In this document: one piece after another, positions 50,486-64,000 of the stretch
How the letters are laid out: every line of letters starts with the position of its first letter
Position numbering within the stretch: the first letter of the stretch is position 1
DNA from: Polyangiales bacterium
GTDB lineage: Bacteria > Myxococcota_A > Polyangia > Polyangiales > Houyiibacteriaceae
Assembly: GCA_035466435.1 (NCBI GenBank)
Contig: DATIUW010000106.1
Coordinates: 422 to 64,421 of the forward strand
Length of the DNA stretch: 64,000 bases
Direction: 5' to 3'
Program-made: the position numbers and the translations under genes
Notes under the pieces: model-generated
What the model was told of the DNA's origin: nothing
The model's input: only the letters and a program-made list of their open reading frames with translations
The model's database searches: none

Positions 50486-51772
50486 ATGAATGGCGAACCG
50501 GAGAATCCACACCGCAGGGCGATTCGAGCCGGATTGGCGGCCGTGGCCCTGCTCATGTCGACCAATGTACAGGCCGGAGCGCAAGAACCGACTCGAGAGC
50601 CTCCTCCCGAAGCTTCCGCAAAGGAAACCATCGAGGAGTTGGTGACGGCGCCTGGTGGCGTTCCAACTGAATCCATCGATCCCGACCTGGCCGTGGAGAT
50701 GCTGAAATCGAGCACCGCGAAGCTGGAAGAGCAGCTGAGGAACGACCTCGCCGGGGGCACGTACGTCATCGATTTCGACGAGGGCTTCGAATGGGTGCGG
50801 CTCGTCTCGGGAGAGTGGGTCAAAGGCGAGATCCAACGCATGCGAGACGATGTCCTCGAGTTCGACAGCGACAAGCTCTCCATGCTCAGCATCGACTTCG
50901 CGGACGTGACTCATCTGTACTCGCCACGCGTGGAAACCTATTTGTTCTACGATCGAGTCAGCGCCACCGGAAAGGGGATCATCATCCAAGACGAGGTCAT
51001 TATCGAGACCGAGGAAGGTGTCAGAATCTTCCCGCGGGATGAGCTGCAGTCGATCATTCCCGGAGGAGATCGCGAACGAGACTGGTGGTCGATGAAGCTT
51101 CGGTTCGGGGCCACGTTCAACAGGGGCAACACCGATCAGCTCACCTATGACATCAATTTCAATACGCGCCGGGAGGACGATCTCACGCTTCTCGATTTGA
51201 AGTACAATGCGTCCTTCGGTCGGACGGGCGGCGAACAGAACGTCAACCGGCATCTAGGAGAGCTGAACTTGAAGGTTTTCGTCTCCAGGCGTTGGTTCGT
51301 CACGCCCGCATTTGGGCAGCTCTTGAACGACCGTTTCCAGAACATTCGGTTCCGAGCCACGCCTGCGGCCGGCGCTGGCATTCACATCATCGATTCGTCC
51401 AAGGTCAAGTGGGATTTCCAAACGGGTCTCGGCTATCAGTTTCTCCGATTTCGAGATGAAAGCGTCACGAACGGAGACAATCCGCAGAACGACGTGTTCA
51501 TTCCGCTCTACACCTACGCGGATTTCGAGATCACGGGCGACATCGATCTCACGCTGAGCTGGAGGACCAACCTCGTGCTGACGACCATCGGCAACACCAA
51601 CCACACCGGCAAAGCCGATCTATCCATCGAGGTCAATAGCATCCTCAACTTCGACATTGCGTTTCTGTATCTCCGGACCGAGGATCCAGGCCCTCCATCG
51701 GATCCCGCAGACCCGCCTCTCGAGCAGAACGACTACCAGCTCATCATCGGCGTCAGCGTCGAGTTGGGGTAG
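50486..51772 (+). CDS. DUF481-like outer-membrane beta-barrel protein
   Basis: Signal peptide; L.SGE.VKG N-terminal domain; RGNTD; amphipathic strands; C-terminal IGVSVELG. Confidence 0.7.
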   Translation: MNGEPENPHRRAIRAGLAAVALLMSTNVQAGAQEPTREPPPEASAKETIEELVTAPGGVPTESIDPDLAVEMLKSSTAKLEEQLRNDLAGGTYVIDFDEGFEWVRLVSGEWVKGEIQRMRDDVLEFDSDKLSMLSIDFADVTHLYSPRVETYLFYDRVSATGKGIIIQDEVIIETEEGVRIFPRDELQSIIPGGDRERDWWSMKLRFGATFNRGNTDQLTYDINFNTRREDDLTLLDLKYNASFGRTGGEQNVNRHLGELNLKVFVSRRWFVTPAFGQLLNDRFQNIRFRATPAAGAGIHIIDSSKVKWDFQTGLGYQFLRFRDESVTNGDNPQNDVFIPLYTYADFEITGDIDLTLSWRTNLVLTTIGNTNHTGKADLSIEVNSILNFDIAFLYLRTEDPGPPSDPADPPLEQNDYQLIIGVSVELG

Positions 51773-52079
51773 CGCTACGTCCGCCGCGTGAGCCGGCCAA
51801 GCGCAGTAGCTCCCCGACGGAGTGATCGGCTTCGATGGGATGGCGGAGAGGAAAGCGCTTGTCGATATGGTAGTGCGTGCGACGGCCCTGGCGTCGCCGC
51901 GAGATGGCCCCTGCTTCTTCGAGCTCGCCCAGGATCCGCTGCACGGCTCGCTCCGTGATGCCAACCGCTTGTGCGATCTCGCGGACTCGAATGTCCGGGT
52001 CGCGTGCGATGCACAGCAGTATATGCCCGTGATTACTCAGGAAAGTCCATGCTGGAGCCGTCTGGTTCGGGATGGCCAT
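51753..52079 (-). CDS. winged-HTH transcriptional regulator (WTFLxNH family, MarR/ArsR-like), copy 1
   Basis: WTFLSNHGHILLCI, VGITERAVQRI, GRRTHY, PLRHPIE. Confidence 0.9.
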   Translation of the reverse strand: MAIPNQTAPAWTFLSNHGHILLCIARDPDIRVREIAQAVGITERAVQRILGELEEAGAISRRRQGRRTHYHIDKRFPLRHPIEADHSVGELLRLAGSRGGRSATPTRR

Positions 52080-52097: not shown

Positions 52098-52161
52098 TAC
52101 ATAAAACACAAATCACGTATTGACAAGCAGGAAAAAAATAACATGCTTCAAATATCATGAA
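52098..52161. promoter_or_regulatory. operator array overlapping a sigma70 promoter
   Basis: TACATAA-N8-TCACGTA (52098-52119); CAnn half-sites at 52100, 52114, 52128, 52142 and 52156; TTGACA at 52120-52125. Confidence 0.7.
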
Positions 52162-53842
52162 TCCGGCGACTCATAGCGTTTTGTCGTCCCGGCCGTCGCC
52201 CTTGCGGCGAACGCGACAGCTTCTAGACCTCGATAGACAAGACATCGCTGTCATCATCATCTACGGCGTTGCGTTGGGTCTGCTGTCGCTCGCGGTTCCC
52301 ATTGCGGTTCAGTCGCTCGTGAATACGGTGGCCTTCGGCTCTCTGATTCAGCCTCTGGTCGTGCTGACGATACTTCTTGCCGTCGCTTTGATCGGCGCAG
52401 CGGTGCTTCGGGCTCTCCAAGTACGAGTCGCGGAAATGCTGCAGAGGCGTTTATTCGTCCGAATGGTGATCGAGATCGGTGATCGCCTGCCTCGCATGAG
52501 CGCGCGGGCGCTTCGGGCGGCCAATGGTCCCGAGCTCTTGAACCGATTCTTCGACGTATTCACCACGCAGAAGAGCTTGGCGCATCTGCTACTTGGCGGA
52601 ATCGACGCGCTGTTGATCGCGCTGGTCGGGATGGCGGTCTTGGCGTTCTACCATCCCTGGCTCCTGGCGTTCGACATCGTCTTGATTCTGGGCGCGTTGA
52701 TCGTGCTCTTTCCCCTGGGGCGAGGCGGAACCCGGACCAGCGTGGCGGAGTCGAAATCAAAATACGCCGTTGCATGGTGGCTCGAAGAAATGGCACGGCA
52801 CCCGCTGTCTCTAAAGCAGGCAGGGGGCGGAGATTTCGCACAGGAGCGCGTCCAAGCGCTTGCTCACTCGTATCTCGACAATCGGGATCGACACTTCAAA
52901 ATCGTCTTCCGTCAGCTCATCGGCGCACTGACCTTCGAGGTGATTGCAAGCGTGGCGCTGCTAGCCCTCGGTGGATTGTTGGTGATCGAGCGTCAGCTCT
53001 CGCTCGGGCAGCTCGTCGCTGCCGAGCTCATCGTGACGGCCGTGGTGGCTTCGATTGCAAAGCTCAGCGGGAAAGTGGAGATCTTCTACGACTTGGTTGC
53101 TGCCGTCGACAAGCTCGGAGATATTCTCGATCTTCCCCTCGAGCGTGAGGGTGGGGAGAGCCCACCCTCCAGCGCGGAGCCTCGTGGGCATCTACACATT
53201 CGAGATTTGGAGATCGATCCGGTGCTACACGACGAAATGCCGCCGATTTCTCTCGATCTCCGACCTGGGCAGTGGCTTGCGATCACCGGTGCGCCCGAGC
53301 GTGCCACCGCACATTTGGTGGATGCGATCTTCGGATTGAATCCCGCCCGTGCGGGTCTCGTGGAGATCGACGGACACGACACGCGCGATCTTTCGCTTCG
53401 CAACCTTCGATCTCGAATTGCGCTCGTCCGCAATGTCGAAGTCTTGCCGGGCACCATCCTCGATAACCTCCGTTCGGCGAATGCCGAGCTCAGTGCCGAC
53501 GATGCATGGGCTGTTCTTCACGACGTGGGTCTAGAAGAGAGCATCAAGTCCTTGCCCGATGGTCTCAGCACCGAGCTAGTCGTGGACGGCGAGCCGTTGA
53601 CACGTTCGCAGACGATTGCGCTGACAATTGCGAGAGCTCTCGCGGGCAGCCCGTCGATTCTCGTTCTCGACCGGACGCTCGACTGGCTTGGTCCGAAGGA
53701 GCGGCGGGCCACGCTCGACGCCTTGCTTTCTCGAAGTGAAGTCTCGGTCTTGCTCATCACCGACGAATCGGAGCTCGTTTCCCGCGCCGATGTGCAATTG
53801 GACCTATCCGAGCTGTTCAAACCGCATGGAGAAGCAGCATGA
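52157..53842 (+). CDS. T1SS-type ABC exporter (TMD+NBD) with degenerate ATPase motifs
   Basis: LAVPIAVQSLVN, ELLNRFFD, LSLGQLVAAEL in the TMD; NBD fold with Walker A as GAPERATA, signature LTRSQ and Walker B LVLDR. Confidence 0.85.
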   Translation: MNPATHSVLSSRPSPLRRTRQLLDLDRQDIAVIIIYGVALGLLSLAVPIAVQSLVNTVAFGSLIQPLVVLTILLAVALIGAAVLRALQVRVAEMLQRRLFVRMVIEIGDRLPRMSARALRAANGPELLNRFFDVFTTQKSLAHLLLGGIDALLIALVGMAVLAFYHPWLLAFDIVLILGALIVLFPLGRGGTRTSVAESKSKYAVAWWLEEMARHPLSLKQAGGGDFAQERVQALAHSYLDNRDRHFKIVFRQLIGALTFEVIASVALLALGGLLVIERQLSLGQLVAAELIVTAVVASIAKLSGKVEIFYDLVAAVDKLGDILDLPLEREGGESPPSSAEPRGHLHIRDLEIDPVLHDEMPPISLDLRPGQWLAITGAPERATAHLVDAIFGLNPARAGLVEIDGHDTRDLSLRNLRSRIALVRNVEVLPGTILDNLRSANAELSADDAWAVLHDVGLEESIKSLPDGLSTELVVDGEPLTRSQTIALTIARALAGSPSILVLDRTLDWLGPKERRATLDALLSRSEVSVLLITDESELVSRADVQLDLSELFKPHGEAA

Positions 53843-55176
53843 AGCATTCCTCGATGGACAACACGCCCTGGACTGGTTTCGTGCGTGATCAGCTTCCCCC
53901 CGGGTTAGAGGTTGGCGCGCCTCGACGGCCGACCACCGTGGCAAAGATGCTCGTCGCCATGTTCCTGATGTTCGCGCTGATCGCACTGTTGGCTCCCTGG
54001 ACCCAAAACATCCGCGGGCGGGGCCGCGTGGTCGCGTACTCTCCCGATCAGCGGGTGCAAACTATTGAAGCGACCATTTCCGGCACCATCGAAAAATGGT
54101 TCGTGCAGGAAGGCTCCCAGGTCAAGAAGGGCGATCCAATCGTGAAGCTGACAGACAATGATCCCAGGATTCTCGATCGGTTGGATGAACAGCGTGGGGC
54201 CATCGAGCTGCAGCGCATTGCAATGTTGCAACGCGTCGAAACGCTGACCTCTCGGGTCGAGTCGCTGCGGCGCTCGCAACGCGCCGAGATCAACTCTGCT
54301 GAGGCAAACGTGGCCATCGCCCACCAGGACGTAGCGGCAGCCCAGCAGGACCTCACCGCGGCACGCGCGGAGCTCGAGACGAACGAGCTCAACTTGCGCC
54401 GGCAAAGCGATCTTCGCAAAGACGGATTGGCCTCGCAGCGCGAGCTCGAGCTCGCGGAGCTCGCGGAGCGGCAGAGCAGGGCAAAGGTGGCGTCAGCCGA
54501 AGCGAAGTTTCAGGCATCTCAAAACAAGCTTTATCAGAGTCGCGCGGCCCTTCGTCGCGTCATCGCGTCCGCCGAGGCGGAGATCGAAGGCGCCGAGGCA
54601 GCTCTGAATAGCGCCCAAACCGACTCTGCGTCCGTAAGCGGCGGCCTCGCTCGCTTGGAGGTCGACATCGCGCGACAAGAAGCGCAGATCATCGCCGCCC
54701 CGATCGACGGAACGATACAAAAGGTCGTCGGCAGGCTCGGCGGCGAGCAGGTGTCACGCGGTGAGGTGCTGGCGGTGCTGGTGCCGCAGACCAACGATCG
54801 AGCGGCCGAGCTCTATGTCGACGGAAACGATGCGGTTCTGATCAAACCTGGAACCAAGGTTCGGCTTCAGTTCGAGGGATGGCCCGCGGTGCAATTTGCA
54901 GGCTGGCCGTCCGTGGCGGTGGGTACCTTCGGCGGCCGAGTTGCGTTCGTCGACGCCACCGACGATGGACGAGGCAACTTCCGCGTCTTCATCGTGCCCG
55001 ATCGAGAGGACGACCCGTGGCCGGCCGCGAGCTATCTTCGCCAGGGCGGCCTCGCGAAGGGGTGGATCCTTCTGAATCAGGTGCGCCTCGGGTTCGAGGT
55101 CTGGCGACAATTCAATGGCTTTCCGCCGACGACCGATCCGCCGCCCATGGCTTCTCCGGACGAGGGAGTCCAATGA
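53839..55176 (+). CDS. HlyD-family membrane fusion protein
   Basis: TM followed by PWTQNIRGRG, lipoyl motifs (WFVQEGSQVKKGD, APIDG), long coiled coil, VRLQFEGWPAVQF. Confidence 0.92.
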   Translation: MKHSSMDNTPWTGFVRDQLPPGLEVGAPRRPTTVAKMLVAMFLMFALIALLAPWTQNIRGRGRVVAYSPDQRVQTIEATISGTIEKWFVQEGSQVKKGDPIVKLTDNDPRILDRLDEQRGAIELQRIAMLQRVETLTSRVESLRRSQRAEINSAEANVAIAHQDVAAAQQDLTAARAELETNELNLRRQSDLRKDGLASQRELELAELAERQSRAKVASAEAKFQASQNKLYQSRAALRRVIASAEAEIEGAEAALNSAQTDSASVSGGLARLEVDIARQEAQIIAAPIDGTIQKVVGRLGGEQVSRGEVLAVLVPQTNDRAAELYVDGNDAVLIKPGTKVRLQFEGWPAVQFAGWPSVAVGTFGGRVAFVDATDDGRGNFRVFIVPDREDDPWPAASYLRQGGLAKGWILLNQVRLGFEVWRQFNGFPPTTDPPPMASPDEGVQ

Positions 55177-56612
55177 TCCGAAAAGCGTCGCTCTGCCTAG
55201 GCTTCTTGTTGGGGGGCGTTTTCCACTCGATCGCACTCGCGAGCGAAGAGCGCATGGCGCCCCTGCGCTTCGACGAAGTGCTGCGGTCGGTGACGGCCCA
55301 TGATCCCCGCATCCGCAAGGCCGTAGAGGGGCTGCGTCGCGCCGAAAGCAACACCATGCAAGCGCGCGGTGCGTTCGATCCGCGCGTCGAAGGAGACGCC
55401 GCGCTGCGGACCGGCGCCTACTACGACTTGAGGCGCGCTGACGTCGAGCTTCGCCAAGCCACGACGCTCTGGGGGTCGGAGATCTACGCCGGTTATCGAG
55501 TGGGCTTGGCTCGGAATGATCGCTGGCCGACCTACTTGGAAGATCAAACACTTTCGGGCGGCGAAGTGCGTGCAGGCATCGACATGCCGATCTGGCGTGG
55601 GGGTCCCATCGACGAGCCTCGCGCGAAACGCGCCCGCGCACTGGCGCTCGAAGAGGCCGCGCGCCACGACCTCTCGGGCATGGAGCTCAACCTCGAGCTG
55701 GCCGCCGCCGGCGCCTACTGGAAGTGGGTGAGCACGGGCCAGAAGCTGGAGGTCACGAGGGGCCTTCTTCGCCTCGCCGAAGAGCGTGATGGCCAGCTTC
55801 GACGGCGGTTGGCGGCAGGCTCGATCGCGGAGTTCGACGTCACGGACAACGAGCGCATCTTGTTCGAGCGCCGGGCATTGCTCGTCGCTGCCGAACGCGC
55901 CTTCGAGCAGGCTGCGTTCGAGCTGTCGTTGTTTCTACGGGATTCCCAAGGGCAATCCGTGGTCCCGGGATCGAGTCGACTGCCCGCCGATCAGGAGCTC
56001 CCGTCAGGCCAGGAGCCCGTCGAGGCACTAGTCATGGAACGCGTTCTCATGTGTCATCCCGATCTCCGACAGGTCCGTGCTCAGCTCGATGCCGCAGAGG
56101 TCGACGTGGCGCTCACGAAGAATCAGCTCGCGCCCGACATCAAAGCCCTTTTCCAGTATTCCCGCGACTTGGGTGAGCTCACGGGCACCGATCTGGACTT
56201 CACGCTCCCAGGAAACGTGTTCAAGGTAGGGGTCCAGCTCTCGATGCCGCTTCCGTTTCGGAGCGAGCGCGGCCGGGCGGGCATCGCCCGCGCAGAGGTC
56301 GCACAGACCGAAGCCGAGGCTCGCTTTCTGGAAGATCAGTTGACCGCCCGGGTTCGCGACGCTGCCTCGGCGGTGCGAGCCGCTCAAGAACGGGTCGAGC
56401 TCACCCAGGAGATCGTCGAAACCGCTGTGGAGCTTGCCGAGGGCGAGCGGCGCCGGTTCGACGTAGGGGCCAGCAACCTCATCTTCGTCAACCTTCGAGA
56501 GCAACAAGCCGCCATGGCCAAGATGCAGCTCATCGAAGCGATTGCGATCGTTCAGATCGAGCGCACCCGATGGGATACGACGACCCGCGTCGAGTGCGGC
56601 CGCGGCGGGTAG
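55173..56612 (+). CDS. TolC-family outer-membrane channel
   Basis: Signal peptide; ARGAFDP, AYWKW, ERRRFDVGASNLIFVNLRE. Confidence 0.9.
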   Translation: MIRKASLCLGFLLGGVFHSIALASEERMAPLRFDEVLRSVTAHDPRIRKAVEGLRRAESNTMQARGAFDPRVEGDAALRTGAYYDLRRADVELRQATTLWGSEIYAGYRVGLARNDRWPTYLEDQTLSGGEVRAGIDMPIWRGGPIDEPRAKRARALALEEAARHDLSGMELNLELAAAGAYWKWVSTGQKLEVTRGLLRLAEERDGQLRRRLAAGSIAEFDVTDNERILFERRALLVAAERAFEQAAFELSLFLRDSQGQSVVPGSSRLPADQELPSGQEPVEALVMERVLMCHPDLRQVRAQLDAAEVDVALTKNQLAPDIKALFQYSRDLGELTGTDLDFTLPGNVFKVGVQLSMPLPFRSERGRAGIARAEVAQTEAEARFLEDQLTARVRDAASAVRAAQERVELTQEIVETAVELAEGERRRFDVGASNLIFVNLREQQAAMAKMQLIEAIAIVQIERTRWDTTTRVECGRGG

Positions 56613-56627: not shown

Positions 56628-57809
56628 TCAACCGTGGCAGGTCATTCGCTCGCCGCCCACCGAGCGACGAGATCCGGTCGATTCGAGACGCGCAAGCAGC
56701 TCCTCGCTTGCGCGCAGTGCGAGTAAGGGATCCTCGTCGAGAACCAAGACGTGACCCATTTTTCGGCCGGGGCGGGGCTGAGCCTTGCCGTAGAGATGGA
56801 GCCGTGCCTCGGGGCGGGCGAAGACCAGGGTCCAATCGGGCTCGCCATCCTGCCAGAGATCTCCGAGCAGGTTGACCATTGCGGCCGGGCGGAGAAGTGA
56901 AGGATCACCGAGGGGAAGATCGAACACCGCGCGAACGTGTTGTTCGAACTGAGAGGTGACACAAGCCCCGAACGTGTAGTGGCCGCTGTTGTGCGGGCGG
57001 GGCGCGATCTCGTTTACGAGCACGGCCGTCCCGCCGACCAGAAACATCTCCACCGCCATCATTCCCACGTGGTCGAGGGCGTTGGCGATTCGGGCTGCGA
57101 TCTCGAATGCTTCCGTTTCTACCGTACTGGTAATCGGGGCAGGCGCGACCGTGGTGTGAAGCACGTGATTGCGATGAACGTTCCGAGCGACGGGATAGAA
57201 GCGCATTTCGCCCCTCGGATTTCGTGCGAGAAGCACAGAGATTTCAGCGTCGAACTCGACGAATTCTTCGAGCATGGCAGGCATTGCTCCGATCGCCTCC
57301 CACGAAGCTTCGAGCTGGTTTGCGGCGGCGATCACGGCCTGACCCTTCCCGTCGTACCCCGAGTGCCGGCTTTTCAGCACGCAGGGGAAACCGAGGCTGG
57401 CTGCCGCTTCGCGGAGCTCGGTCAAGTGGCTCACCGGGAGGCAACGTGGTTGCGGCGCCTCGATGCTTTCGAGGAAACGCCGTTGCGCTCGACGATCCTG
57501 GATGGTTTGCAAAACCGAAGAAGAGGGGCGAACGGGACCGATGCGCTCGAGATCGGCCAGCATGGATGCCGGAACGTGCTCGGTGTCCAGCGTGATGACG
57601 TCGACTCGACGAGCGAGCTGTTTGGCCGATTCGACGTGGTCGAGCTGGCCGGGGACCCACTCATCAGCCAGAGGGACCGCGGGATCGTCTCGATCGGGGC
57701 TCAATACACAGACTCGGTAACCCATGCGGCGGGCCTCGAGAATCATCATCCGTGCGAGCTGGCCCCCCCCGATGATGCCGAGCGTTGCACCTGGGAGCAG
57801 TGGGCTCAT
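56628..57809 (-). CDS. purK: N5-carboxyaminoimidazole ribonucleotide synthase
   Basis: [43 protein letters not shown]. Confidence 0.97.
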
Positions 57810-58312
57810 AGCTTCGTCTCCAGGACTTTCGCCGTCTGCGCGGATCGATAGGCCTGGAGCCGTCCGCGTAGCTCTGCGTCGCCCCGTGCCAGGATGGCTG
57901 CGGCCAGCAGTCCGGCATTCGCGGCGCCGGCATCGCCGATGGCCAAGGTGCCCACCGGGATTCCCTTCGGCATCTGCACGATCGACAAGAGGGAATCCAT
58001 CCCGCTGAGAGCGCTCGTACGAACGGGGACGCCGAGGACGGGAAGCAGAGTCTTGGCAGCGGCCATGCCGGGTAGATGGGCTGCGCCACCAGCGCCCGCG
58101 ATCAGGACCTCGATGCCCCGGGCCTCTGCCTGCTCACAGAAGCTGAACAGTAGGTCGGGCGTTCGATGGGCGGATACGACCTTCGCCTCGTACGGGATCC
58201 CGAGCTCGCTCAGCACACGGGCCGCGTGCTCCATCGTGGACCAATCGCTCTGGCTGCCCATGATGATGGCAACGCGGGCCGGAGGGGGATCAGGGCTTGT
58301 TGGTGCTCCCAT
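57806..58312 (-). CDS. purE: N5-CAIR mutase
   Basis: [39 protein letters not shown]. Confidence 0.98.
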
Positions 58313-58419
58313 GCGACAATATACTCACGAACCCGGCTTCGCGGGTCCTATATTGCCGGAGGCCTTCGAGCGCAAGCCGTTCAGGCGAAAAAAGCTCCCA
58401 ATTGCCGACAGTTAGCGAT

Positions 58420-58449
58420 TTGACTCGTGAAATCAGCGTCATGTAAGGT
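58420..58449 (+). promoter_or_regulatory. promoter of regulator copy 2 with the operator between -35 and -10
   Basis: TTGACT-18 nt-TAAGGT, containing CTCGTGA-N8-TCATGTA (58424-58445). Confidence 0.65.
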
Positions 58450-58493: not shown

Positions 58494-58820
58494 ATGGCAA
58501 AAAATAGCGCGAAGGCTGCGGACCAGGATTCCTCGTGGACTTTCCTCACCAATCATTCTCACGTGCTCTTGTGCCTTGCAGAGGACCCCGAAGCGCGAAT
58601 GCGCGATGTTGCCACACGGGTGGGGATTACCGAGCGCGCGGTTCAGCGCATCGTGTCCGAGCTCGAGGCCGCAGGCTACCTCGTGCGGCACAGAGAAGGG
58701 CGCCGAAATCGATACGAGGTCGAGGGGAACCTTCCATTGAGACACCCCGTCGAGGGTCACCGGAATCTCGAAGCCCTCATCAGGCTCATCCTGGGCTCCG
58801 AGGCCAAGCCGTCCCGCTGA
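58494..58820 (+). CDS. winged-HTH transcriptional regulator (WTFLxNH family), copy 2
   Basis: WTFLTNHSHVLLCL, VGITERAVQRI, GRRNRY, PLRHPVE. Confidence 0.9.
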   Translation: MAKNSAKAADQDSSWTFLTNHSHVLLCLAEDPEARMRDVATRVGITERAVQRIVSELEAAGYLVRHREGRRNRYEVEGNLPLRHPVEGHRNLEALIRLILGSEAKPSR

Positions 58821-58830
58821 CGGCGCGCGC

Positions 58831-59913
58831 TCAGCCTTCGTCCGATTCGGAGTCGTTCTTCTCTTCCCGGCGGCGTGTGAGCTCCGACTCGAGCTCGGTT
58901 TTGAGCGCTTCGAGACGCTTGATGCGAGCCTCCGCTTCCTCCTCGTCGATCTCGCCCGCATCGTTCTTCTTCAGCTTCGCGATCTCTTCCACGACGCTTT
59001 CGAGCTTCTGCTCCAGCTTGGCCTCGCTCTCGGCCAGCTCGGCCTTGTCGAACATCCGTTCTTCGGGTCGAGATTCGTTCGCCGACGTCTTTTCTCTGCG
59101 CGCGCGCTGGACCGCGGGAATGAAAACGCGGTTCTCCGGGAGCTGGCGTTGATTCATGAAAGTGGGGGACACGATCTCGATGCCCGCCTCGTGCAGGCTG
59201 TCGAGCGCGCTCTTACGGAGCTCGGACTCCGCGCTGAGCAGGTATTTCACCTCCTCGAGGAAGCCTGCCACCTGATAGGTGATCGAGAAATCTCCCAGCT
59301 CCAACACGAAAACGAATGGATCCGCGAGACCCGCACGACGGGCAGCTTCGAGCAAGCATTTTTCTACCTCGCCGCGGGGCACGTCGTATCCCAGCGAAAC
59401 CGTGGCGGAGATGAACGTGCCCGAGGAGCGGACCACGGTGACGGGGTTTGAAACGAGGTAGAGGTTCGGTAGGGTCGTCAAGTCGCGCCGCTCGTTCTGG
59501 ATCTCGGTTCGCAGCAACCCGAGCTCGGACACGCGTCCGCGGTGTCCTTCGACGACGATGAAGTCCCCAGGCTTGAAGTTTCGAATGGAGCGCAGCATCA
59601 GGCCGGCCATCGCGTTGCCTAGCAGGGTGGTCGATGACAGGGCGACTGCTGCGGTCACCAAAATCCCCAAGAGGCTCAGAAGCTGCCCACGAGCGGCGTC
59701 GGCAATCGGAAGCTCGAGGATCACGAGGACTACGACGACACCCGCCAATGCTCCAATGAGAAGTTGTTGCGAGATGCGGCTCCCGGACGTCGGAGGCTTT
59801 CGCTTCATCAGAAGCTGATACGCAGCAGTGACGATCAAGATCCCGATCAGCAGTATGACCAGCGCGGGAAGCCACTCGCGGAGGGAGGCTGGAATCGATT
59901 TCAGGTAGTCCAT
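58831..59913 (-). CDS. MscS-family mechanosensitive channel
   Basis: Three TMs; LGNAMAGLML, FKPGDFI, GRVSELGLLRT, LPN, VSLGYDV; acidic coiled-coil tail. Confidence 0.9.
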   Translation of the reverse strand: MDYLKSIPASLREWLPALVILLIGILIVTAAYQLLMKRKPPTSGSRISQQLLIGALAGVVVVLVILELPIADAARGQLLSLLGILVTAAVALSSTTLLGNAMAGLMLRSIRNFKPGDFIVVEGHRGRVSELGLLRTEIQNERRDLTTLPNLYLVSNPVTVVRSSGTFISATVSLGYDVPRGEVEKCLLEAARRAGLADPFVFVLELGDFSITYQVAGFLEEVKYLLSAESELRKSALDSLHEAGIEIVSPTFMNQRQLPENRVFIPAVQRARREKTSANESRPEERMFDKAELAESEAKLEQKLESVVEEIAKLKKNDAGEIDEEEAEARIKRLEALKTELESELTRRREEKNDSESDEG

Positions 59914-59914
59914 T

Positions 59915-60886
59915 TCAACTCTTCGAAAGCACCAAGAGGGCCATGTAGCCGACGAAGCCGGCTAGAAGCACGAATCCCTCGGCTCGGGTAACCCTCATCC
60001 CCGTCTTCATCAAGGGAAACAGCAAGAACGAAGCGCCCAGCATCCACCACATGTCTCGGCCGAGGATTTCTGCCGGAACGGTCAAGGGATGAATGAGACT
60101 GGTCGCACCGGCGATGCCCAACACGTTGAATATGTTGGATCCCACCACATTGCCGACAGCGACGTCGTCTTGGCCCCTGCGAGCCGCCACGAGTGACGTG
60201 GCGAGCTCCGGTGTGCTCGTGCCGGCAGAGATGATGGTGAGACCAATCACCGTATCCGAGACGCCAAGCGCGCTCGCCACGGCAATCGCGCCGCTGACGA
60301 GCGCCTTCGAGCCTGCGGCCAGCAATGCCACGCCGGCAACGACGGCTCCGATGTTGAAGGCCGCGGCGGCCTTGCCCGTTCGTCCGAAAGAAGCGGTCGT
60401 GAGCTGCTCGAACTCCTGTTGCTCGAGAGGCGTCACGCTCTTTCGACCCAGCCAAACCGCATACGCGGTGAATGCGACCATGGCAGTGAGCAAGAAGGCG
60501 CCCTCGATGCGATCGAGCAGTGAATCGCGTGTCAGAAGGTAGAGCTGAAAGGCAGCCAGCATCATCACCGGCCATTCGAGGCGAACCGTGTTGCCCAAGA
60601 TGCGAAGCGGTCGAATCAGGGCTGCAAGCCCGAGAATGGCGCCGATGTTGAAGATGTTCGACCCGACCACGTTGGCAATCGCGATTCCGGGGCTACCCTC
60701 GACGGCCGCTTGCAACGACACGACGAGCTCGGGCATCGACGTACCCGCCGCCACGATGGTGAGCCCGATGACCGGCGGCGAAATCCGAGCGAGCAGCGCA
60801 ATGCCGCTCGCGCCCCGCACGAGCGCCTCGCCGCCACCAAATAGGAGAACGAGGCCACCGACGATCAGCGCCCATTGCAAAATCAT
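59915..60886 (-). CDS. Ca2+/Na+ antiporter (CaCA, YrbG-like)
   Basis: Two alpha repeats: [14 protein letters not shown]...NVVGSNIFN and [14 protein letters not shown]...[10 protein letters not shown]. Confidence 0.95.
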
Positions 60887-60952
60887 GGCTCAGTCACCCT
60901 CGAATCGAGCAGCTTCAATTGTGGCCGATGGCAAGCTACCATACTTGGTCCC

Positions 60953-61534
60953 ATGAGGTGTGGGCACACTTGGACGGCACGGATCTTGGCAGATGCGCGG
61001 GCCAAGACACGCAGACTTGGTCTAGCCGCGTTCTCGAGCGTTCTCATCGCCGGTTTCTCATCGGCTCCGGTCGCATCGGCAAAGGGCTTCGAAGGAGGGC
61101 AGTCGATCTACGGATGGACGGAGTATGCGCATCTCTATCCGAAGGGGCTTCGCTTGAAGGCGAAGCTCGACACCGGCGCGAATACCTCGTCGCTCAATGC
61201 GCTCAACATGGAGAAGTTCGAGCGCGATGGCGAGCCTTGGATCAAGTTCGAGGTCATCGACCCCTCGGGCGACGAGCGGATCCGATTCGAGCGTCCGATT
61301 TCGCGCGAAGTCCACATCAAAGACCTCGATGGAGGATCGGACAGCAGGCCCGTAGTGCGGATGGAGTTGTGCATCGGACGCACGTACCGGGAAGTAGAGT
61401 TCAGCTTGGTGGATCGAAGCCACTTCGACTACCAGGTTTTGGTGGGCCGAAACTTCCTCGCAGATGCGGTGCTCGTCGATGCGGGGAAGAGGTTTCTGGC
61501 GGGCAAGAAATGCAAGGCGGCTAGAAAGCAGTGA
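60953..61534 (+). CDS. secreted retropepsin-like aspartic protease (RimB/RloA-like)
   Basis: Signal peptide; GWTE, KAKLDTGANTSSL, RPVV, EFSLVDRSHFDYQVLVGRNFL; start approximate. Confidence 0.85.
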   Translation: MRCGHTWTARILADARAKTRRLGLAAFSSVLIAGFSSAPVASAKGFEGGQSIYGWTEYAHLYPKGLRLKAKLDTGANTSSLNALNMEKFERDGEPWIKFEVIDPSGDERIRFERPISREVHIKDLDGGSDSRPVVRMELCIGRTYREVEFSLVDRSHFDYQVLVGRNFLADAVLVDAGKRFLAGKKCKAARKQ

Positions 61535-63045
61535 GCGGCACGGGAGTCAAGGTGCTCGTCGTCGCTTTGATGGCCGCCGGATTGGGACTGGCTGCCTACA
61601 AGCACTGGATCTTGGGGTACCCTGCCGTGCCGGATACGGCGATTCCGAGTTGGTTGGTCGAAGCTCGACTTCGTGTCGTTGCGAACGACGGTCCCGTCAA
61701 GGTGCGATTCAAGATACCGAACGATCCCTACGGGTACGGCATCCTCGAAGAAGACTTCGTGTCCGACGACTTCGGTCTGACCACGCACGCCGGCACGCCG
61801 CGTATCGCAGAGTGGACCGTGCGGCGCGCAAGCGGCGAGCAGACGCTTTATTATCGTATGCTGGTCTACCGAAAGCCGTTCACCTTCGACGAGGAGCCCC
61901 CTCCGGGACCGGCCCCTGCACCGGAATGGGAAGAGCCTTATCACACGGCCGCGGTGCAACTCGTAGATTCCGTCCGTGCGCAATCGGCGGGCCCGGTGTC
62001 GCTTGCCTCCATTCTGATGAGTCGATTGATACAAGCTTCTCCCGACGATTCCGCCTCGCTATTACTTCGGCGAATGCCCGGCGAGCCAGACGTCGTTCGG
62101 ACGGCCGTCAACCTCCTCGCCTATGCAGGCATTTCGGCCCGCAAAGTCACCGCTCTCGAGATCAGCGACGGCCGCACGGGCGTGCGGCCCGAGCCGTGGT
62201 TGGAGGTGTATGCAGAAGGCCAGTGGACCGGCATCGATCCCTCGACCGGCGAAGCGCGCTGGCCGGAGGAGCTCTTGCTTTGGACCCGAGAGGGAGGGCG
62301 TTTGCTGACTGTCGAGGGAGCCGATGAGCCGGAGCTCGAGTTCTCGGTGGCCCGTAACCAGCGGGATGCGGTCATCCTGGCTCAACGACGCGCACAGCGC
62401 ATGGATAGCCCGCTCAGTGGAGTCTCGCTCTTCGACCTGCCTTTGGGCACCCAAAACGTTTACAAGATCTTGCTGCTCGTTCCGCTGGGCGCGCTCTTGG
62501 TCATCGTGTTTCGCAACATCATCGGAGTACAGACCATCGGCATCTTCATGCCGATCCTGATCGCGCTGGCATTTCGAGAGACGGGGCTGACCGTCGGCTT
62601 GCTCTTGTTGATCGTCATCGTAGCAACGGGGCTGGCCATTCGCTTCTACCTCGACCGACTTCGCCTGCTCTTGGTTCCCCGTCTTTCAGCCGTCGTCACG
62701 GTCGTGGTGGGCCTGATGGTGGCCGCAAGCCTGTTGGCCGACGAGTGGCAGCTCGATCGCGGTCTCGCAGTGGCCCTCTTTCCCATCGTCATCATGGCGA
62801 TGACGATCGAGCACATGTCCGTGGCGTGGGAGGAGCGCGGTCCGGCCGTCGCGTTGCAAGAGGGCTTCGGGAGCCTCGTGGTGGCGGTGGCCGGCTACTT
62901 CGTCATGATCAATCCGATCATCGGGCACGTCATGTTCACGTTCCCCGAGCTCTTGCTGGTGGTTCTGGCGTTGTCGATCGCTCTGGGGCGCTACACCGGA
63001 TACCGTATTACGGAGCTATGGCGATTTCGATCGCTTCGAGGGTGA
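61531..63045 (+). CDS. inactive transglutaminase fused to a 7TM domain
   Basis: PWLEVY...W.GIDP transglutaminase remnant with no catalytic Cys; LPL..QNVYKILLLVPLGAL, GIFMPILIALAF, GRYTGYRITELWRF. Confidence 0.88.
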   Translation: MSGTGVKVLVVALMAAGLGLAAYKHWILGYPAVPDTAIPSWLVEARLRVVANDGPVKVRFKIPNDPYGYGILEEDFVSDDFGLTTHAGTPRIAEWTVRRASGEQTLYYRMLVYRKPFTFDEEPPPGPAPAPEWEEPYHTAAVQLVDSVRAQSAGPVSLASILMSRLIQASPDDSASLLLRRMPGEPDVVRTAVNLLAYAGISARKVTALEISDGRTGVRPEPWLEVYAEGQWTGIDPSTGEARWPEELLLWTREGGRLLTVEGADEPELEFSVARNQRDAVILAQRRAQRMDSPLSGVSLFDLPLGTQNVYKILLLVPLGALLVIVFRNIIGVQTIGIFMPILIALAFRETGLTVGLLLLIVIVATGLAIRFYLDRLRLLLVPRLSAVVTVVVGLMVAASLLADEWQLDRGLAVALFPIVIMAMTIEHMSVAWEERGPAVALQEGFGSLVVAVAGYFVMINPIIGHVMFTFPELLLVVLALSIALGRYTGYRITELWRFRSLRG

Positions 63046-64000
63046 GGCAGCAGATGGGTCCACTTTCGCCCAAGCGTTTCCGCGATCTCGGCGTGCTCGG
63101 CATGAACCGGCGCAACTTCGAGCTCATTCATGCGCTCAATCCACGGGCTTCTTATCCTCTCGTCGACGACAAGCTTCGTACCAAGAGGCTGGTTCGGGAC
63201 CACGGCATCTGTGTGCCGGAGGTCTATTGCGTGATCGATCGCCACCACCAGCTCCAAGACATCGAATCACGACTCGAAGGCCGCGACGATTTCGTCGTCA
63301 AGCCCGCGAGAGGGGCTGCCGGAGATGGGATCTTGGTCGTGGAGCGACGCTTGGGCGGGGGATCTTATCGAACGGCCAGCGGCAAGCTCAAGTCGATCGA
63401 AGATCTGCGCCAACACCTAGCGAACATTCTGAGCGGAATGTACAGCTTGAGCGCGGCGCCCGACAGAGCGTTTTTCGAGTACCGAATCAAGCCGGACGAG
63501 ACTCTCGGAAAGATCAGCTTTCAAGGCGTTCCCGATGTGCGGGTCGTCGTGTACCGCGGCTACCCCGCATTTTCGATGGTGCGGCTGCCGACGGCCATGG
63601 CGGACGGGAAAGCAAACCTGCACCAAGGAGCCGTGGGAGCGGGGGTGGACATCGGCACGGGCAAGACCTCTTCTGGTGTATGGAAACGACGGAGAATCCG
63701 TGAGCATCCGGATACGGGTTGCTCGATCGAGGGCGTCGAAGTGCCTCACTGGCCCCGGTTGTTGGAGATCGCTGCTGGATGTTTCGATTTGATCGGAATG
63801 GGCTATCTGGGTGTTGATTTGGTTCTCGACGAGGACCATGGCCCGATGATGCTCGAGCTCAACGCGCGGCCGGGTCTCGACATCCAGATCGCCAACCGAA
63901 GGGGTCTGAGGGAGGTGCTCGCCAAGGTCGATGCGTTCGCGGACGAGCCGCGGTCGCCGGCCGAGAGAGTCGACATGGCGAGAAGTCATCTCGGCGATGG
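63042..64000 (+). CDS. alpha-L-glutamate ligase-like ATP-grasp protein (RimK-related), running off the right edge
   Basis: GVLGMNRRN...NPR..YPLVDDKL, FVVKPARG..GDGI, GVPDVRV, ANLHQG, GYLGVDLV, LELNARPGL; no stop in the window. Confidence 0.92.
   Translation, partial: MRQQMGPLSPKRFRDLGVLGMNRRNFELIHALNPRASYPLVDDKLRTKRLVRDHGICVPEVYCVIDRHHQLQDIESRLEGRDDFVVKPARGAAGDGILVVERRLGGGSYRTASGKLKSIEDLRQHLANILSGMYSLSAAPDRAFFEYRIKPDETLGKISFQGVPDVRVVVYRGYPAFSMVRLPTAMADGKANLHQGAVGAGVDIGTGKTSSGVWKRRRIREHPDTGCSIEGVEVPHWPRLLEIAAGCFDLIGMGYLGVDLVLDEDHGPMMLELNARPGLDIQIANRRGLREVLAKVDAFADEPRSPAERVDMARSHLGD

Follow-up and report, generated by a model that had tools for sequence, protein, structure and literature searches.

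How an ATP-binding cassette (ABC) exporter could work once every motif of its ATPase has been lost, and what it would then carry, is the question raised by a three-gene operon in a Polyangiales bacterium of the Myxococcota (assembly GCA_035466435.1, contig DATIUW010000106.1, positions 422 to 64,421; this whole stretch of 64,000 nucleotides is the window, in whose positions all coordinates are given). The operon encodes a 561-residue protein of the ABC-exporter fold followed by HlyD- and TolC-family proteins, and an earlier reading of its letters, referred to here as the original prediction, proposed that the ATPase is dead and that the protein either finds a partner in trans or acts as an ATP-independent conduit across the envelope. 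The data presented below indicate that, in the host lineage, the pump is very probably functional, partner-less and independent of ATP, and that the system probably serves inorganic-carbon homeostasis; that its cargo is bicarbonate, moving inward, is a far more tentative proposal. The operon and the motifs of its first gene are the following:

52157..53842, + strand: type IV ABC-exporter-fold protein, 561 aa, with a six-helix transmembrane domain (TMD) and a pseudo-ATPase nucleotide-binding domain (NBD); matches to ABC_membrane and ABC_tran
52196..53146, + strand: TMD, residues 14-330, bearing the family-invariant residues
53288..53311, + strand: degenerate Walker A, GAPERATA, residues 378-385, without the lysine
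53429..53440, + strand: degenerate Q-loop, RNVE (VRNVE in the alignment)
53597..53611, + strand: degenerate signature motif, LTRSQ, residues 481-485
53657..53674, + strand: Walker B, ILVLDR, residues 501-506, with arginine in place of the catalytic glutamate
53762..53764, + strand: position of the switch histidine, D536 (ITD)
53839..55176, + strand: HlyD-family membrane fusion protein (MFP), 445 aa, intact, by family match
55173..56612, + strand: TolC-family outer-membrane channel, 479 aa, intact, by family match

Alignment to P-glycoprotein and to the canonical exporter of the host genome, from which the motif positions were taken, leaves the 561-residue protein with no canonical ATPase motif (Walker A, Q-loop, LSGGQ, Walker B DE or switch histidine), the aromatic residue of the A-loop being gone as well, and it returns the same GAPERATA, LTRSQ, DR and ITD that had been read at first. 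The description of the operon also held: the TMD, HlyD and TolC are intact, ATGA start-stop overlaps couple ABC to HlyD (53839-53842) and HlyD to TolC (55173-55176), no other ABC gene is encoded in the operon, and no RTX-type substrate lies beside it. In all 120 close homologs (64-94% identity) the Walker A lysine and the switch histidine are absent and Walker B reads DR, with Walker A, Q-loop, signature and catalytic glutamate likewise lost; the closest named record among homologs, Myxococcales bacterium SG8_38, is 91% identical. Since the 120 homologs share the loss, and since contigs of run X3 (possibly the source sample) spanning 53286-53625 and 53614-54011 agree with the window at every letter, the loss of the motifs is not a sequencing error.

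The set of ABC, HlyD and TolC genes is complete for a type I secretion system (T1SS) architecture. The AlphaFold model of the ABC protein (pLDDT 89.6) shows the whole of a type IV exporter monomer, and its closest structures are PCAT1 (8vox) and HlyB (8dck), at a TM-score of 0.86 and about 20% identity. As with HlyB-HlyD-TolC and the PCAT/AMS exporters, the genes form an operon of ABC protein, MFP and outer-membrane factor (OMF), and long relatives carry a domain resembling C39, which is a lead. On the other hand, the protein falls far below the cut-off of every curated model (among them TIGR01846, TIGR03375 and TIGR03796/7), with 101-128 bits against 510-726 for the T1SS families HlyB/PrtD/LssB, and neither RTX nor double-glycine cargo was seen. 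It is therefore built like a T1SS component yet is not a member, because its scores fall far below the cut-offs and both ATPase motifs and cargo are missing; its basic TMD residues are specific to its own family. The N-terminal C39 peptidase domain of PCAT/bacteriocin exporters was not found in the 561-residue protein, and the database labels for these genes, bacteriocin or peptidase-domain exporter, are not supported by the evidence.

A dead ATPase could also be the first sign of a decaying pseudo-operon. The ratio of nonsynonymous to synonymous substitution rates (dN/dS), the check that had been suggested for the NBD, lies between 0.02 and 0.17 for the TMD and between 0.09 and 0.43 for the NBD in 13 non-overlapping within-genus pairs, between 0.01 and 0.22 for HlyD (9 pairs), and between 0.02 and 0.20 for TolC (7 pairs). 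The NBD value is mostly 2-8 times that of the TMD, as decay would have it; every ratio is nevertheless well below 1, which denotes purifying selection, the frames are intact in 13 of the 17 other members of the genus, and the promoter and gene overlaps are conserved. Decay was rejected on the ratios below 1 throughout, and can hardly be credited; the NBD appears instead to be relaxed but retained, as expected of a scaffold.

A second possibility is that a canonical half-transporter encoded elsewhere pairs with the 561-residue protein in trans, which would fit the degenerate-site review (PMC7756269) in that the degenerate sites described in its available part occur in non-homodimeric transporters. 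In TM287/288 and TmrAB (same source), degenerate NBD motifs likewise sit on a type IV fold, but one working site is kept together with a partner, whereas here there is one gene and both composite sites would be dead. The host genome (100% complete by marker genes, in 355 contigs) encodes one other ABC_membrane exporter, a 605-residue protein on contig C104 with all motifs canonical. Neither HlyD nor TolC is encoded next to this exporter; its sequence is too divergent to be picked up by tblastn, and it is kept in 4 of the 4 genus members that lack the ABC and HlyD genes of the operon. Moreover, a subunit without Walker A and signature would spoil both composite sites of any dimer it enters. The family loci examined, 211 in all, come from Myxococcota, Bacteroidota, sphingomonad plasmids and metagenomes, and 140 are at least 12 kb long; of the 211, 202 carry a single ABC-type gene, the remaining nine have an unrelated ATPase besides, and none contains a second member of the family. 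The partner in trans was rejected, as the sole candidate is not co-distributed with the operon, and it seems most improbable; since all ATP motifs are lost and no partner gene is found, the protein likely forms a homodimer without ATP binding or hydrolysis.

The same loss recurs throughout a large family. At E 1e-40 or better (a cut chosen for this analysis), matches were found in 89 of 401 Myxococcota genomes, 56 of 251 Bacteroidota genomes and 23 plasmid records, and look-alike clusters in the Atlas, headed by Verrucomicrobiota, Pseudomonadota and Planctomycetota, are leads only. Duplicate loci (L064, and L066 for adjacency), loci outside the family (L068-L071 and L138-L151) and genomes G525/G526, whose matches are canonical exporters, were dropped before counting, and L243-L246, chosen for their proximity to DabA, were kept out of the set of 207 loci used for adjacency. 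By motif calls from automatic alignment, some of which may be off, 19 of 150 representatives keep the Walker A lysine, the Walker B DE and the switch histidine together, whereas all 9 outgroup exporters do; the triple persists in 9 of 44 Bacteroidota, 3 of 31 other Myxococcota, 14 of 76 metagenome proteins and none of four sphingomonads, and an exact LSGGQ/E in one of the 150. A tree built from the TMD alone unites the 312 family rows in a single clade (support 96), with no fewer than 24 changes of the intact state inside it, the host clade and the sphingomonads having lost their motifs on separate branches; IQ-TREE counted 12 such changes in a subsample of 70 rows, in a tree whose inner branches are weak and whose outgroup drew warnings of long branches.

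What the family conserves lies in the membrane. Across 306 family proteins, conservation reaches 96-100% at ten TMD residues (N129, K139, S199, K202, R243, H246, E290, K302, D312 and K319), which 10 outgroup exporters mostly lack; members with and without the catalytic motifs alike keep them, a pattern suggesting that selection has shifted from the motor to the membrane domain. The family spans several phyla and derives from HlyB/PCAT-type exporters; a cluster look-up of 10 representatives returned generic names only, and a search of openly accessible papers listed none describing it. Of the two alternatives in the original prediction, the ATP-independent conduit is thus the one left standing, as a prediction supported by purifying selection, motif loss repeated across the family and the invariant TMD residues. 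In a rival reading, the NBD would still bind a nucleotide or another ligand as a gate or regulator, or act as a slow ATPase through non-canonical residues. Purifying selection on the NBD, the fixation of the new residues R425, D505-R506 and T384 in the host lineage, and the retention of the Walker A lysine in 220 of 312 family rows would fit such a role; the P-loop of the host lineage, which varies freely in sequence and length, and the missing A-loop aromatic do not, and a ligand-binding NBD is considered quite unlikely.

A hint about the cargo is offered by the neighbours of the operon in other genomes. Genes for SulP, beta-carbonic anhydrase (CA), SbtA, DabA or MpsC occur at 22 of 207 loci, and within 1.6 kb of the operon at 17 of them, where about 1.1 would be expected, counts to be read with the facts that several marker queries came from these same loci, that some loci are kin, that one match is a weak CA-like protein, and that independent cases number nearer ten. 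The genes belong to four unrelated carbon systems and are found in different phyla. Two Bacteroidota loci read ABC-HlyD-TolC-SulP-CA with SbtA, and a Sphingobium plasmid has dabA directly before the ABC gene (dabBA-ABC-HlyD-TolC), while the five other plasmid loci read have no carbon-gene neighbour. Further layouts are CA-ABC, SbtA-CA-ABC, MpsC-ABC and, in two members of the host genus, TolC-SulP. Among the four loci chosen for a nearby DabA match, three have dabBA adjoining the operon, and in one of these three, L244, regulator, dabB, dabA, LysR, Usp, ABC, HlyD and TolC follow each other on one strand. At L195, ABC-HlyD-TolC is followed by twin ArsR genes and dabBA.

Co-occurrence across genomes points the same way. 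DabA is found in 52 of the 89 Myxococcota genomes with the family and in 24 of the 312 without it, an odds ratio of 16.9 that becomes 14.9 when the host genus is excluded and 5.3 within five families with listed totals; the control family PF14402 shows no link (13/89 versus 44/312, odds ratio 1.04). In Bacteroidota, SbtA accompanies the family in 31 of 56 genomes, against 41 of 195 genomes without it, and in 31 of 55 against 41 of 172 when genomes with a heme-copper oxidase are compared. The host genome itself encodes DabAB, SbtA, beta-CAs and SulP away from the operon. There is, then, a genomic association of the family with the inorganic-carbon toolkit, although it is absent at the host locus itself.

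The regulation of the operon offers a second line of evidence. The elements concerned are the following:

51753..52079, - strand: divergent winged-helix regulator, 108 aa, of the WTFLSNH type, likely the operon repressor
52098..52161, no strand assigned: conserved promoter/operator, five CANN/CATG half-sites with a 14-bp period over TTGACA (52120-52125)
58424..58445, no strand assigned: isolated operator-like site, CGTG-N10-CATG, in the gap from purE to the second regulator
58494..58820, + strand: second winged-helix regulator, paralogous to the first (52-55% identity) and divergent from purE-purK

The divergent regulator is present at 29 of 32 loci of the genus and at 15 of 32 other Myxococcota loci. 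In the 77 bases that separate it from the start of the ABC gene, half-sites begin at 52100, 52114, 52128, 52142 and 52156; the array is kept in the promoters of 28 relatives, and a matrix built from relatives ranks the sites of the host locus 1, 2, 3 and 5 genome-wide. The conserved promoter, whose second hexamer matches at 3 of 6 positions, escaped a simple sigma-70 scan. This hexamer ends about 9 bases before the ATG at 52157, and no ribosome-binding site was seen; a leaderless mRNA starting at that ATG, conserved across the genus, is likely. The site at 58424..58445 scores 7.1, against a background 99th percentile of 6.9, and matching sites in the gap between purE and the second regulator score 11-13.5 in two relatives (L033 and L034). 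A third WTFLSNH paralog lies in the host genome on contig C332 of G000, at about 1975-2256.

The operator reappears at the dabB promoter of L244 (19.4 and 15.6, against the same background) and L243 (11.9 and 10.8), and was not found at that of L245. Of 41 records with plasmid relatives of the regulator, six were read, and in four of these six a CA, DabAB or SbtA gene is found no more than 5 kb away; WTFLSNH proteins are possibly an undescribed family of CO2/bicarbonate-responsive repressors with the operator CATG-N10-CATG. These relatives belong to actinomycete plasmids, and one relative from Deinococcus is divergent from isocitrate dehydrogenase. Elsewhere the place beside the operon is taken by regulators of other types, ArsR holding it in 6 metagenome loci; a LysR gene is near the operon in 18 loci (L048, L075, L077, L090, L091, L152, L153, L244 and others), its nearest match being the LysR of host contig C45, kin of the one that faces dabBA.

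It is tentatively proposed that the ABC-HlyD-TolC system carries bicarbonate on an ion gradient through both membranes, most likely inward. The ABC protein would work as a homodimer, with its dead NBD retained as a scaffold; K139, K202, R243/H246, K302 and K319 would make up an anion site where the cavity meets the cytoplasm, whereas E290 (in transmembrane helix TM6, the candidate coupling residue) and D312 would couple H+ or Na+. HlyD and TolC would supply a duct through the outer membrane, and the winged-helix protein would repress the operon through the CATG-N10-CATG array, releasing it when inorganic carbon is short. A use of this fold for anions has a parallel in CFTR (ABCC7), which attracts them through K190, R248, R303 and K370 on the extensions of TM3-TM6 (PMC6986785, available part); in the AlphaFold model, K139, K202, R243/H246 and K319 are on the same four helices. 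CFTR is a single chain gated by ATP binding and hydrolysis, with neither MFP nor OMF, unlike the system of the operon. A precedent for transport by a type IV TMD without ATP is MsbA-MD, an MsbA lacking its NBD that transports on a pH gradient, as described in the available part of PMC4979069, where a Walker A mutant is inhibited by ATP; MsbA-MD is an engineered truncation with drug substrates and not a natural system. In the family studied here, an early loss of the signature and a later loss of ATP binding would avoid ATP trapping of the kind seen in the MsbA mutant.

The direction is the more delicate point, since inward movement is favoured because the operon is co-oriented with uptake genes, which is the sole basis for it. 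The same dead NBD and basic TMD residues would also serve an ATP-independent efflux of bicarbonate, as an overflow or pH valve, or of another small anion, driven by the inside-negative potential. Thermodynamically, an anion would leave downhill with no need of ATP, the fold and the TolC partner are those of exporters, and CLC channels occur near 4 loci of the Bacteroidota set. However, co-orientation with dabBA, SulP-CA and SbtA-CA suggests induction at carbon shortage, when a leak would be wasteful, and efflux is regarded as unlikely.

Equal weight is given to the export, type-I-like and on the proton-motive force, of a peptide, small protein or lipid needed at low CO2. The closest models and structures are indeed NHLP, LssB, PrtD, HlyB and PCAT exporters, and many family members have an N-terminal extension of 150-220 residues that resembles C39 domains, a lead only, and no PDB sequence matched the extension under E 0.3. 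This domain is absent from the 561-residue protein, a short form, and from 131 of 313 rows sorted by length; no cargo gene is conserved among the neighbours, and the one repeat protein of the host genome seems to bear a lipoprotein-type signal. Cargo of the RTX type was rejected, with RTX-like repeats at just 1 of 211 loci. In the long forms L081, L083, L090 and L131, a histidine-rich linker, perhaps a pH or metal sensor, joins the C39-like domain to the TMD.

Several observations weigh against the importer, against its carbon link, or against both. A minority of the family has motifs close to canonical, 16 of 150 representatives retaining four. The conserved polar residues of TM2, TM3 and TM6 gather on no single face, with helical-wheel resultants of 0.33-0.39 (0.60 for TM4 and 0.87 for TM5), and the likeness to CFTR is drawn from the identity of the helices and a single shared spacing (180 for both K139-K319 and K190-K370, the inner two residues not matching), not from aligned structures. 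Porins probably let bicarbonate through outer membranes, which leaves it unproven that a duct is needed, and TolC systems are familiar as exporters. In the host genome, the dabB, sbtA, CA and SulP genes have no operator ahead of them (scores of at most 1.2), for which reason a genome-wide regulon under the CATG-N10-CATG operator was rejected, and dabBA has its own LysR. The roughly 1.1 adjacencies expected come from the gene density of a single genome, that of the host; kin genomes are not independent, so that the p-values make co-occurrence look stronger than it is; and 37 of the 89 family-bearing Myxococcota genomes have no DabA match, as 24 DabA genomes have no family match. Finally, 185 of the 207 loci show no carbon gene in the available sequence, including that of the host, where only purK-purE adjoin.

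This last count, and the variety of regulators beside the operon (winged helix-turn-helix, LysR, ArsR and TetR, the latter in 20 of 44 Bacteroidota loci), would suit a carbon link that is incidental, due to shared lifestyle or mobile islands, with the pump exporting an unrelated compound without ATP. Such an accident would not readily explain why four unrelated carbon systems recur beside the operon across phyla, why PF14402 shows no co-occurrence, why the SbtA association persists among oxidase-bearing genomes, or why an operator is common to dabBA promoters; it is judged rather improbable, somewhat more so than efflux or another cargo. In any case, inward movement of bicarbonate is favoured over these three alternatives, as a tentative choice.

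The pseudo-ATPase tripartite system is real and conserved and is built on a known architecture, its bicarbonate cargo being a prediction. ABC exporters are held to require at least one working ATP site, and running a type IV fold on a gradient has so far been shown for engineered truncations; a widespread, presumably homodimeric family that repeatedly loses its ATP sites while its membrane domain hardly varies is a natural test of whether the fold can run on an ion gradient alone. The tie to DabAB, SbtA, SulP and CA points to a testable cargo. DabAB/MpsAB, SbtA, BicA/SulP and CmpABCD (PMC10880623 and PMC13144422) are genomic companions with which a purpose would be shared, although they have unrelated folds and act at the inner membrane; the available part of the review of the carbon toolkit does not mention TolC, HlyD or the outer membrane, and in the available portion of a review of tripartite pumps (PMC8277102) neither bicarbonate nor ATP-independent operation was found. 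Were the proposal true, a component spanning the outer membrane would be added to the bacterial inorganic-carbon toolkit. A natural, ATP-free, tripartite inward importer of bicarbonate, forming an undescribed uptake class with a parallel in CFTR and an undescribed CO2-responsive winged-helix repressor, is conceivable rather than likely, and the same holds for the span that such a class would have across Myxococcota, Bacteroidota, sphingomonads and other phyla.

Downstream of the operon, two genes of purine synthesis are encoded on the opposite strand:

56628..57809, - strand: purK, N5-CAIR synthase, convergent neighbour
57806..58312, - strand: purE

PurK, which presumably uses bicarbonate, is encoded beside the operon at the host locus and at 4 related loci. 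The pair purE-purK stands between the operon and the second regulator (56628-58445, and also in L033, L034, L036 and L051), operator-like sites flank both sides of the purE-purK gap in relatives, and L051 has a carbonic-anhydrase-like gene between tolC and purK. Upstream of the first regulator, a DUF481 outer-membrane barrel gene (50486-51772) is found in 9 loci of the genus and has four further paralogs in the host genome. The second regulator is followed by genes for an MscS channel and a Na/Ca exchanger (58831-60886), MscS being near the operon in 7 loci, and the region 60875-64000 holds a putative zinc protease, an inactive-transglutaminase 7TM protein and a likely ATP-grasp gene; PF14402 occurs in none of 22 other genomes of the same family, and this block may be a recent gain. 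At L076 (genome G180), gene calling did not yield HlyD as a single frame, and the dabA of the genome is split in three, from either joint decay or assembly indels. In L153, L172, L182, L194, L200, L227, L231 and L232, small proteins are encoded ahead of the operon or of its LysR, and some of them match the S30AE/HPF family. Finally, uvrA abuts the ABC gene in L134, L137, L208 and L217, and the two of these loci checked on the tree, L134 and L208, group together and retain the Walker A, DE and H.

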